Origin: Malacoraja senta
Lineage: Eukaryota
Reading direction: 5' to 3'
NCBI GenBank assembly: GCA_038087875.1
Contig: CM075980.1
Coordinates: 12,400,001-12,464,000, forward strand
DNA length: 64,000 bases
Below, one piece after another: positions 56,138 through 59,545 of this stretch. Positions within the stretch are counted from its first letter, which is position 1. Every line of letters starts with the position of its first letter. The notes beneath the pieces are model-generated. The model did no database searches and was not told where the DNA came from. It saw only the letters and a list, made by a program, of their open reading frames with translations. The position numbers and the translations under genes are program-made.

Positions 56138-57314
56138 CTGTAGCACAATATTCAGCACGCTGATTATTTTTATCTTTACTTTACCTGTTGTACTTGTGTA
56201 TGGCTTTTTAGTACTCAGTTTAGTACGATTTGACTGGTTAGCACACAAACAATGTTTTTCACTGTATCTCTGTATTCGTGATAATAATAAATCAATATCA
56301 ATCAGACAAAAAACTTTATGCTGCTTGACCCGCTGAGTACTTCCAGCAACTCAAATGTGTGTCAATTCGTAATTTCTGATACTTCTCCAGCATTTTATCG
56401 GGATGCATTACACCATGGTTTGGGAACAGCTCCATCCAACATCATAAGAAATTGCAGAGAATTGTGGAAGTAGCCCAGACCAACACACAAACTAACCTCC
56501 TTACCATCGACTTCATCTACACATCACGCTGCCTCACCAAGGCCACCAGCATAATCAAGGGCGAGTATCACCCCAGACACTCTCTCATCTCCCCTCTCTC
56601 ATCAGGCCAGAGGTACAGAAGTGTGAAAATGCATACTTCCACATTCAGATACAATTTCTTCCCAGCTGTTATCACGGCAACTGAAGCATCCTAACACCAA
56701 CTAGAGAGCAATCCTGACTTACCATCTACCTCAAAGGAAACCCTCGGACCATCTTTAATCAGACTTTACTGGGTTTTATCTTGCACTAAATATTACTCTC
56801 TTTATTCTGTATCTACATACGGTAGACGCCTTGATTGTTATCATATATATTCTTTCCATTGACTAGATAGCACGCAACAAAAAAGCTTTTCACTTTACCT
56901 TGGTACACATGACAATATACTAAATTAACATTTTTATCTGTCCATATTTATTTAAATGTTTACAACTTTTTTTTGGTTCTTACTAGATTATTGTTATTAT
57001 CTATATTCCCTTTGCTTATGAATGTCTTGGTCCCCTTTTGTTTAGTTCTTTTTTTTTCCAATCCTCGGGCTTACTGCTAATTGTGGCAACTACAAGCCTT
57101 TCCTTTTGATCTAATGGTATCTTTAACTTGTTAGTTACAGCTGGACCACTTTTTCTGCTGGAATGTTGTGCCTTATATATAATTTGCTATATTTTTAATT
57201 TCTTAAATGTCAGACATTGTTTTTTCAATACGTTTTACTGTAGTTATCAACTGACTTTATTTCACCGTTTATAATCTGGGAACAACTCATTTTCCATTTT
57301 GTATCAAGATTAAT

Positions 57315-58930
57315 TACACTGGTGAGCCCGACGTGATCTGAGGCCCCCGGTCGGAAGTTATGTCCAGTGGCGGTCCCTGGGGGGTAGGCCACTCCTTGGA
57401 TCATTCCCCTCGCCGAGTGAGGGACATGGGATTGTGTGTGCCGCGGCCTGGACTTCGTCTTCGTGTACTTGGATGACATACTCGTGGCCAGTCGCACGCG
57501 GCAGGAGCACTGCATCCACCTCCGTCAGCTGTGTCAGCGTCTCAGCGACTTCGGTTTGGCCATCAACGCGTCCAAGTGCCGTTTCGGGGTGACGTCTATC
57601 GACTTCCTCGGCCACCGCGTGACTCCACAAGGGGTGGTGCCTCTGCCGGTCAGGGTGGACGCTATTCGCAGGTTCCCCCGTCCGACCAGTTAGGGGCCTT
57701 CAAGAATTCGTGGGGATGGTCACCTTCTATCACCGCTTCCTGCCGGCAGCGGCCGCAGTCATGCGTCCGCTTTTCCACCTGATTGCTGGTCATCGCAGGG
57801 AGGTTGAGTGGTCCGCGGAAGCATCAGCGGCTTTTGAAAGGGCTAAGCAGGCACTGGCTGAAGCCACGATGCTCGTCCACCCACGGGAGGACGCCCCGAC
57901 CGCCCTGACGGTAGACGCTTCTGAGGTTGCGGTTGGGGGTGTTGGAGCAGCTCGTTGATGGATGCTAGCGGCCACTCGCCTTCTTCAGCAGGCATCTCAG
58001 TGGTGCTCAGCACCGTTACAGTGCCTTTGACCGCGAGCTCCTTGCCCTATATCTCGCCGTACGCCATTTCCGCTACTTCCTGGAGAGGAGGCCGTTTACT
58101 GTGTTTACGGACCACAAGCCGCTAACCTTCGCGTTCGCCAAGGTTTCAGACCCGTGGTCTGCCCGGCAGCAGAGGCAGTTGGCGTATGTGTCCGAATGCA
58201 CCACCTCCATCCGGTTCGTTGAGGGCAAATTCAACAGAGTGGCAGATGCCTTATCGAGACCTGCAGTCCACGCGGTTCTCCAAGTCGCTGAGGGTATCAA
58301 TTATTCCGCCCTAGCAGCCGCTCAGTTGGTCGACGAGGAGATGTCCGCTTATCGTACGGCAGTTTCGGGCCTGCAGTTGGAGGACGTTGTCTGTGGTCCT
58401 GGGGGTGCAACGCTGCTGTGCGATGTCTCCTCTGGAGTTCCGCGACCCATCGTCCGGCGGCGCAGGGTGTTTGAGGTGCTCCATGGGCTTGCGCATCCCT
58501 CCATCCGGGCGACAACGGCCCTGGTAGCCTCCCGTTTCATGTGGCACGGGCTGCGGAAGGAGGTTGGACACTGGGCGCGCACCTGCATCCCGTGCCAGAC
58601 CGCCAAGGTGCAACGACCACTTGCGCTCGAGGCTTGGTGGCGCACTGGATCGCCAGGTTCGGAGTGCCACTGGACATAACTTCCGACCGGGGGCCTCAGA
58701 TCACGTCAGGGTCACCAGTGTAGTGGCCTAGACGAGGTCAGAAAAAGGCCAAACGCCAGGCTGGTTCAATCAGTAGACTTTTAATCCCTACAGCGAGCGT
58801 ACACCACACACACACCTCGAGGGCACTAAATCCAGGGTCGTCTGGAAACCCCGTGGCAGACCAGTCCCCTGTCCCTCACTCGGCGAGGGGAATGATCCAA
58901 GGAGTGGCCTACCCCCCAGGGACCGCCACA
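57315..58930 (+). mobile_element. rearranged Ty3/Gypsy LTR-retrotransposon fragment (pol on +; LTR and PBS inverted)
   Basis: RT (FVYLDDILVAS..FLGH), RNase H (TVDASEVAVGGV, TDHKPL, ADALSR), integrase HHCC (LHGLAHPSIRAT..CIPCQ) and core remnant (WIARFGVPLDITSDRGPQ). Frameshifted, CpG-rich, with inverted terminal blocks. Confidence 0.92.
58719..58930 (-). repeat. Gypsy LTR (212 bp), followed on - by a tRNA-Trp primer-binding site (58700-58717)
   Basis: On -: TGTGGCGGTC...ATTAAAAG...GGCCACTACA, then C, then TGGTGACCCTGACGTGAT (17/18 to TGGTGACCCCGACGTGAT, the complement of the tRNA-Trp 3' end). Confidence 0.85.
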
Positions 58931-59269
58931 CTGAAATAATTACTTTCTGGACTTGGTTACATCTCTCTCACGGACATTAAATTTCACCCATTACTTTTTC
59001 CATTGCTGTCATTAATTCATCTTGTTATGAACATTGCAAGCATTCAGAGAAAAATCCTTCAGTTCTGCCTTGCAACCATTTTTCCATGCAATGACTTTAA
59101 CTGTAAATATACGTGCACTTGTATGCTCTGGCTCTTCCTGATGATTGGCTGCCATTACCCGTTCTGTCAGCCAAAGTGCATTGAGTTTTCTCTAACTTAC
59201 TAAATTTCTATTCACTTGAACCCAGTCCCCAGTACTCAGTTTCAGCTGTATCTGCAACCGTAGTTATTC

Positions 59270-59545
59270 AGTTTCGTTTTAGAGATACAGCGTGGAAACA
59301 GGCCCTTTGGCCCACAGAGACCGCGCCAACCGTGATCACCTGCACACTAGTTCTATCCTACACATTAGGGACAATTTACAGAAGCCAATTAACCTCCGAA
59401 AAATGCATGTCTTTCGAATGTGGGAGGAAACTGGAACACCCGGAGGAAACTCACAGGGAGAATGTACAAACTCTGCACAGACAGCACCGTAGTCAGGATC
59501 GAACCTCGGTCTCTGGCGCTGCAAGCAACTCTACGGCTGCGTTCC
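59270..59545 (-). mobile_element. tRNA-derived SINE (HE1/V-SINE-like)
   Basis: Same head, core and tail as 55411-55692; B-box-like GGTTCGATCC at ~59496-59505 on -. Confidence 0.75.

Follow-up and report, generated by a model that had tools for sequence, protein, structure and literature searches.

The window, a 64,000-nt stretch of DNA (G000:C4:12400001-12464000), contains a rearranged copy of a Ty3/Gypsy retrotransposon that extends from approximately 57317 to 58930 (Table 1). Pfam hits to RVT_1, RT_RNaseH and Integrase_H2C2 place its pol fragment on the + strand in the order RT, RNase H, integrase, which is the Ty3/Gypsy domain order and bears out the original prediction for the strand of pol. 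The copy lacks two direct LTRs, gag, the GP(Y/F) region and a target-site duplication (TSD). It has only one full end repeat, which is 212 nt long and lies antisense to pol. Because ordinary copies of the family carry LTR and pol on the same strand, the LTR in the window is truly inverted, as had been proposed, and an LTR natively inverted throughout the family can be rejected.

Table 1. Features of the rearranged copy in the window
Feature	Positions	Strand	Remarks
Left host junction	57315..57319	+	TA microhomology at 57315-57316 (host/last U5 bases), then U5 remnant and linker
Second copy of the 18-nt tRNA-Trp complement	57320..57337	+	One mismatch, at 57326; spanned by contigs of X23 and X24
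Inverted copy of integrase 58666-58699	57338..57371	+	Ends in GTGGC microhomology, 57367-57371
Copy of own LTR nt 2-61 (U3 end)	57367..57426	+	Identical in sequence to own LTR
U3/RT switch point	57426..57434	+	Short imperfect match with GGACTG core
pol fragment (C-terminal RT, RNase H, N-terminal integrase)	57429..58699	+	Frameshifted; ~95-96% identity with ordinary copies
Junction of the ~172-nt integrase deletion	58609..58617	+	At a 9-nt direct repeat
18-nt complement of the mature tRNA-Trp 3' end	58700..58717	-	CCA included; stops before A58; C>T at 58708
Single linker base between tract and LTR	58718		
Sole full LTR	58719..58930	-	212 nt, TG...CA; precise host join 58930/58931

The left end is composed of inverted copies of right-end pieces, in agreement with the prediction. 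Positions 57315-57371 match 58666-58722 in reverse complement over 57 nt, except at 57326 and 57329, and the reverse complement of 58870-58929 is found at 57367-57426 (60 of 60 nt identical); GTGGC joins the two pieces. The integrase segment said to be missing amounts to approximately 172 nt between two TGCAACGAC repeats. The spacing of these repeats is 172 nt in 18 and 171 nt in one of the 19 copies scored (26 loci given), and the deletion is absent from the 39 other best-scoring copies. The window copy is a dead end with no function of its own.

Ordinary copies have two direct LTRs, a PBS, a PPT and a TSD, as is typical of Ty3/Gypsy elements. The TSD is 4 bp in eight of the nine ordinary two-LTR copies fetched; the ninth, L049, gave no call. 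The gag search used Cx2Hx9Cx3C, which we take to be the CHCC spacing, and found this motif in all four ordinary copies examined. A GPF motif lies near the end of integrase in five of five copies. By these features, the tRNA-Trp PBS included, the family appears to be a CsRN1-like Gypsy: the available text of PMC3630058 lists a tRNA-Trp PBS, a CHCC gag motif, GP(Y/F) in integrase and a 4-bp TSD for the CsRN1 lineage.

The 18-nt tract predicted on the - strand is present, with one linker base between it and the LTR. It is the complement of nucleotides 59-76 of tRNA-Trp, CCA included, as given by the host genes L095 and L098, both of which ARAGORN calls tRNA-Trp(CCA) genes and both of which match the tract. 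The CCA is not encoded in L095. A tRNA pattern gave 21 matches, and 17 loci scanned comprised two tRNA-Trp genes, one tRNA-Arg gene and, for the rest, mostly PBS-side tRNA copies. The ordinary PBS pairs with tRNA-Trp over 9 or 10 nt in 12 of the 13 copies scored (15 nt in L084), and downstream of this short PBS ordinary copies run into a leader hairpin. With a family PBS of only 9-10 nt, the 18-nt tract cannot derive from the ordinary genomic leader.

Exact matches to the short PBS numbered 41 plus 7, or 47 after removal of one inverted copy inside L063. An LTR end followed by the exact 18-nt tract was matched 18 times, 16 of them in the family of the window, representing 14 distinct other loci; dropped before these counts were L052 and L054, which belong to another family, and L061 and L067, which have the same flanks as L060 and L066. 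The next tRNA base follows the tract in none of the 18 exact matches, a count from a search pattern that requires at least 18 nt and thus cannot show that none stop earlier (the tRNA copy in L083 is 13 nt). None of the 16 family matches continues into the normal leader and the tract copies do not form one clade, so a lineage with a genomic 18-nt PBS is rejected. The tract is likely a copy of the tRNA primer itself, carried on plus-strand strong-stop DNA. In HIV-1, m1A58 is the plus-strand stop according to the available text of PMC8599865. The tRNA-copied bases in the window are absent from the genomic leader and end at A58, as is characteristic of aberrant plus-strand transfer.

The leader hairpin behind the short PBS (CCATCACG...CGTGATGG) is found in L042:507-535 and in other ordinary copies. 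Its 3' arm could pair with tRNA positions 59-64, and its 5' arm is the commonest mis-priming site. The pairing suggests that the ordinary leader may hold a bipartite PBS.

The tract is fused to integrase at a site where ordinary copies read CAG TTCACGTCGG A. A microhomology between the usual integrase and the tract had been noted as TCACGTC; it is present, but it extends over 9 nt (TCACGTCGG) rather than 7, and is followed by a mismatch at the last base of the tract. At this position, 58700, the window has a tRNA-derived A compared to T in 26 of 27 loci, some of which are overlapping fetches of one copy; because L022, the one other locus of the 27 ordinary integrase loci, also has A, the terminal mismatch is not proven. 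The junction is the sole 9-nt match among ~8,300 positions on both strands of two copies, and the duplex at this site has the lowest energy in three of three copies (-13.2 compared to -10.1 to -10.5 kcal/mol for the next best). Thus, the junction lies directly behind the tRNA copy at the site most capable of pairing among ~8,300, as expected of aberrant transfer. In a sister family, two different loci (L121 and L122) have the tract joined to antisense integrase at neighbouring ITS codons; L121 shows an 8-nt match at the join, a later jump to a U5-like end and a 4-bp TSD. The original prediction had called for a search for the same junction elsewhere, as a sign of a propagating non-autonomous derivative. 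With a 121-nt query across the junction, the window alone covered the query among the 40 candidates scored of 356. The exact junction was not found again and a propagating derivative is not supported within that sample, but the class of junction recurs. Separately, L083 (G000:C15:4145000-4148400), which has two LTRs and a TSD, carries its 13-nt tRNA copy fused to sense integrase ~25 nt from the junction of the window.

The two left-end pieces were copied from the same molecule. The left U3 piece is identical to the LTR of the window copy, an identity over the same stretch shared by one of 62 other LTRs, and the outer piece holds the private tract/integrase junction; together these indicate that the molecule served as its own template. 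LTR nt 2 is the last position in the U3 copy, which fits run-off at a template end. The fold-back match is only 5 nt, and GTGGC occurs six times on that strand. Comparable steps are found at other loci. In L084, antisense RT jumps to antisense U3 ending at an LTR-like terminus, and a near-perfect 4-bp duplication (ATAG/ACAG) indicates that the jump there preceded integration. In L059, a back-copy runs through the PBS and ends at the host join after 3 nt of U5, with no TSD and with the primer-side LTR whole. The two arms of the window copy differ at 2 of 117 positions, compared to 2-11 of ~212 between the LTRs of 14 two-LTR copies; this lies within the LTR-LTR range, and the window copy is therefore about as old as the family. 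As a further observation, L084 (G000:C1:76288000-76293300) has one LTR and two inverted U3-type ends, and its 15-nt tRNA match rejoins the leader.

The host junctions were read against empty alleles on contigs of two related organisms. Single contigs of organism A (X1) and organism B (X2) join 57316 to 58931 via TC. On the right side, the comparison with X1 and X2 places the CA end of the LTR in exact junction with host DNA. On the left side, the host ends in TA, which it shares with the end of U5, giving a 2-nt microhomology and a loss of two host bases; since the empty alleles come from other organisms, this 2-bp loss presupposes that their state is ancestral. The window insert has no TSD by comparison with X1 and X2, and so lacks the 4-bp duplication of normal two-ended integration. 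The ACACTG noted at both junctions is not a host duplication, as the empty alleles show: the left ACACTG is derived from the element, the ACA on the right is the LTR terminus, and CTG alone belongs to the host. Its presence on both sides is coincidental, arising from the LTR terminus, the linker and three host bases. A 6-bp TSD or a host-primed capture, for which the empty allele would read ...TTACACTGAAAT, is rejected by X1 and X2.

Across 56900-57367 and 58902-59299, contigs from two samples of organism F show 0-1 differences; they support both host junctions and the left tract/integrase junction, although the assembly may itself derive from one of these samples. Reads did not show the U3/RT junction or the right tract/integrase junction. 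The window copy likely entered by a one-ended route. Immediately to the right of the insert, a repeat of high depth starts (window 59250-59400); it presumably resembles the short interspersed repeats of cartilaginous fish.

Copies bearing the tract recur in the genome. The family comprises 632 LTR candidates, and about a quarter of PBS-bearing copies carry the tract. At the 14 tract loci, the first turn behind the tract is onto a sense template in 11 (eight by script and three by eye), two go straight to the minus strand, and the remaining locus is ambiguous; very short runs in L051, L060, L064 and L066 escaped the automatic first-junction caller and were read by eye. The acceptor in the 11 sense-turn loci is the leader motif in eight (a 6-nt match), the protease/RT region in two and a weak site in one. 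A 6-nt minus-strand box, use of which would give a simply lengthened PBS, was used by none of the 14. Antisense runs in the other loci are mostly 5-41 nt and are long in only two of the 11 (864 nt in L050 and 1,321 nt in L063). Microhomology is small or nil in two tract copies (3 nt in L050 and 0 nt in L057).

Tract loci that regained a second end mostly show 4-bp TSDs. The TSD is exact in L050, L053, L056, L057, L063, L065 and L066, has one mismatch in L051 and L055, and is not evident in L060; L058 and L062 have an altered 5' end, and L059 and L064 have a single LTR and no evident TSD. In a tree of 48 5' LTRs, whose bootstrap had not settled, the 11 tract rows need 9 changes compared to a shuffled mean of 10, and a single clade of tract copies is rejected (p-AU 2.9e-12). 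These rows represent ten of the 14 loci and the window; L055, L058, L062 and L065 have no full LTR start and were left out. The scatter on the tree and the rejected clade indicate that the tract copies are independent events.

Several loci with tRNA-derived sequence have other structures. L051, L060/L061 and L066/L067 are mini elements of ~245 nt in which an LTR and the 18-nt tract are followed by a few bases of antisense leader and a reconstructed U5 end; the TSD is exact (L066) or imperfect. They resemble solo LTRs but are likely reverse-transcription products. In L065 (L080), 37 nt of antisense RT replace the interior of the 5' LTR; its tract junction is the same as that of L063. In sister families or subfamilies (L052, L054, L123, L125-L128), tRNA-Trp copies read through A58 for ~30-45 nt, several with C rather than T at position 19, and then jump to pol, leader or host, as in the delayed-transfer type of HIV. 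Finally, tandem arrays with 52-nt units (L100, on C4264) and ~40-nt units (L124, on C2253) contain an LTR-like end and a copy of the tRNA-Trp 3' end in each unit.

The window copy is likely a frozen reverse-transcription error of a class that recurs in the family, although its own junction has not been propagated. We consider it highly probable that strong-stop DNA carrying the tRNA copy mis-primed on sense integrase, as originally predicted; a PBS of 9-10 nt compared to a tract of 18 nt and the rank of the integrase site as top annealing site both uphold this core, which is common to the full sequence of events favoured here and to the two more probable of its rivals. That full sequence, in which strong-stop DNA (LTR plus 18-nt primer copy) primed on sense integrase, copied pol backwards and was inserted by one end, is held with somewhat better than even confidence. 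Given 9-10 compared to 18 nt, normal transfer would leave 8-9 unpaired 3' bases that may seek other partners. On the - strand of the window, the 3' end of the tract would have annealed to TCACGTCGG and been extended over the terminal mismatch, and ~1,270 nt of antisense integrase, RNase H and RT would have been copied. The growing strand would then have switched to U3 at the GGACTG match and run off at the LTR terminus, folded back at GTGGC onto its own integrase/tract junction, and stopped 4 nt into U5. Integrase probably joined the single good U3 end, for which an ordinary minus strand would have supplied the 3'-CA, and host repair probably joined the free end via the 2-nt microhomology with loss of two host bases. 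We infer the order of the later switches and the enzyme of the last fold-back (RT or host polymerase). The proposal that the strand folded back twice before insertion has separate precedents for its steps in L050, L063, L084 and L059; its order is a reconstruction.

Points against the favoured sequence of events are the mostly short antisense runs at the other loci, the 5-nt fold-back match, the A in L022, the tract copies with little or no microhomology (L050 and L057) and the two inner junctions that reads did not show. Moreover, one end product cannot fix the order of switches, because a mirror order yields the same sequence. In the mirror order, the strong-stop DNA makes a 34-nt antisense run, transfers to a minus strand whose end is the U3 terminus, copies U3 and pol forwards and folds back as a hairpin, with the other LTR arm trimmed in repair. 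A short antisense run and then a minus-strand jump is the commonest pattern among the tract loci (L055, L056, L058, L062, L065), and the closing fold-back would have a homology of at least 35 nt and would itself make the 3'-CA end. However, this order requires a loss of ~208 nt that ends 4 nt from the U5 end, whereas L059, in which the order is unambiguous, has an intact primer-side LTR and, like the window copy, ends shortly inside U5 (after 3 nt), and L084 shows the antisense RT-to-U3 jump on the primer strand. The precedents in L084 and L059 favour the order given by the original prediction, without proving it, and we regard the mirror order as unlikely. Alternatively, reverse transcription may account for no more than the tract/integrase junction and the antisense pol, with the two self-templated left pieces added by a host repair polymerase once the good end had been joined by integrase. 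Polymerase-theta-like templated insertion would provide a mechanism. Neither template is more than 270 nt from the joined end, and end joining fits the short microhomologies and the absence of a TSD. Moreover, one-ended HIV integrations may bear extra viral DNA in either orientation at aberrant ends, according to the available text of PMC5041404. Against this, the U3 copy goes no further than LTR nt 2 and includes no host base, and L084 made the same jump before integration. We rate host repair as the source of both pieces as unlikely too, a shade below the mirror order.

The remaining explanations do not share the mis-priming event. Two insertions in opposite orientation could have been fused later by DNA-level deletion and inversion at microhomologies, which the size of the family and the frequency of tract copies make conceivable. 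Such a fusion is nonetheless largely excluded, given that the empty site lost only 2 bp, that the junctions lie at exact tract and LTR ends, that a private junction of the same molecule is copied in the left pieces and that the arm divergence is in the range of LTRs from a single insertion. Fold-backs can be assembly or library artefacts, and the two junctions unseen in reads leave room for a chimera; but contigs of two samples (one maybe the assembly's own) span the host junctions and the left tract/integrase junction, the arms differ at two sites, and 14 other loci, many of them flanked by TSDs, have similar junctions, making a chimera still more improbable than a fusion. Autointegration (an inversion circle) with re-insertion would yield inverted portions adjoining an LTR, as described in the available text of PMC7197481. 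It would join an intact LTR CA end to internal sequence, whereas in the window no such join is found: the main junction is the end of the 18-nt tRNA tract, and at the inner U3 junction the terminal base is missing and the join falls inside a microhomology. We consider autointegration the most remote of the explanations.

We speculate, with about even confidence, that plus-strand transfer fails by design in this short-PBS family: RT copies 18 nt and the genome offers 9-10, so that about one copy in 4-5 would derive from mis-primed strong-stop DNA, with a tail that prefers sense tRNA-like motifs in the leader hairpin and integrase core (11/14) and never the minus-strand box (0/14). The genome would then be a readable archive of reverse-transcription intermediates, and PBS shortening would have a measurable fidelity cost in a vertebrate-like host. 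If true, this pattern would mean that transfer usually precedes completion of the minus strand. Most of what is known about plus-strand transfer in Ty3/Gypsy elements with a PBS shorter than the stretch of tRNA that is copied comes from yeast. The fossils described here provide in vivo evidence on the plus-strand stop (18 nt, A58), the partners of the free tail and the germ-line entry of one-ended products. They also offer a simple genomic assay, in which tRNA tracts exceeding the family PBS are tallied and the sequence that follows is mapped. This class of error also accounts for a set of copies overlooked or wrongly classified by LTR finders, namely inverted, single-LTR and mini copies.

Aberrant second-strand transfer and one-ended integration, the class of mechanism invoked here, have been described in HIV and ASLV. 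Hardy et al. (2025, PMC12657518) report 44 aberrant (delayed) second-strand transfer sequences in HIV-1 defective proviruses. As far as the available text shows, tRNA-copied bases beyond the pairing of the minus strand lead to failed transfer there as here, with a junction right behind the tRNA copy. In HIV-1, however, the excess comes from read-through past m1A58 and gives inserts of 7-54 nt, whereas in this family the A58 stop is normal and the PBS is short. Likewise, the HIV-1 strand jumps downstream on the minus strand and produces deletions, whereas here the template is mostly sense and the products are inversions; the word "inversion" is absent from the main text of PMC12657518 in the form available. 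For one-ended integration of ASLV and HIV-1 (Varadarajan et al. 2016, PMC5041404), the available text describes, as proposed here, one end joined by integrase and the other by host enzymes, the host-joined end often being truncated or linked to more viral DNA in either orientation. Those cases involved engineered ends, drugs or integrase mutants in cell culture, whereas the window holds a natural germ-line fossil whose bad end arose in reverse transcription.

In Ty1 and Ty3, the PBS is strictly inherited, according to the available text of a review (PMC7472051, citing Lauermann and Boeke 1997). Ordinary copies here likewise keep the short genomic PBS, but a large minority have the tRNA copy fixed, and the junction in these is almost always aberrant; L084 and L085 rejoin the leader after a shorter tRNA-like stretch. 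We found no account of this class in a Gypsy family in the literature searched, which mostly did not extend to older or subscription work, and the available portions of PMC6894440 and PMC3587641 contain nothing on it. What appears new, relative to that literature, is the high share of such copies, their antisense bias and the link to a short PBS in a CsRN1-like Gypsy family.
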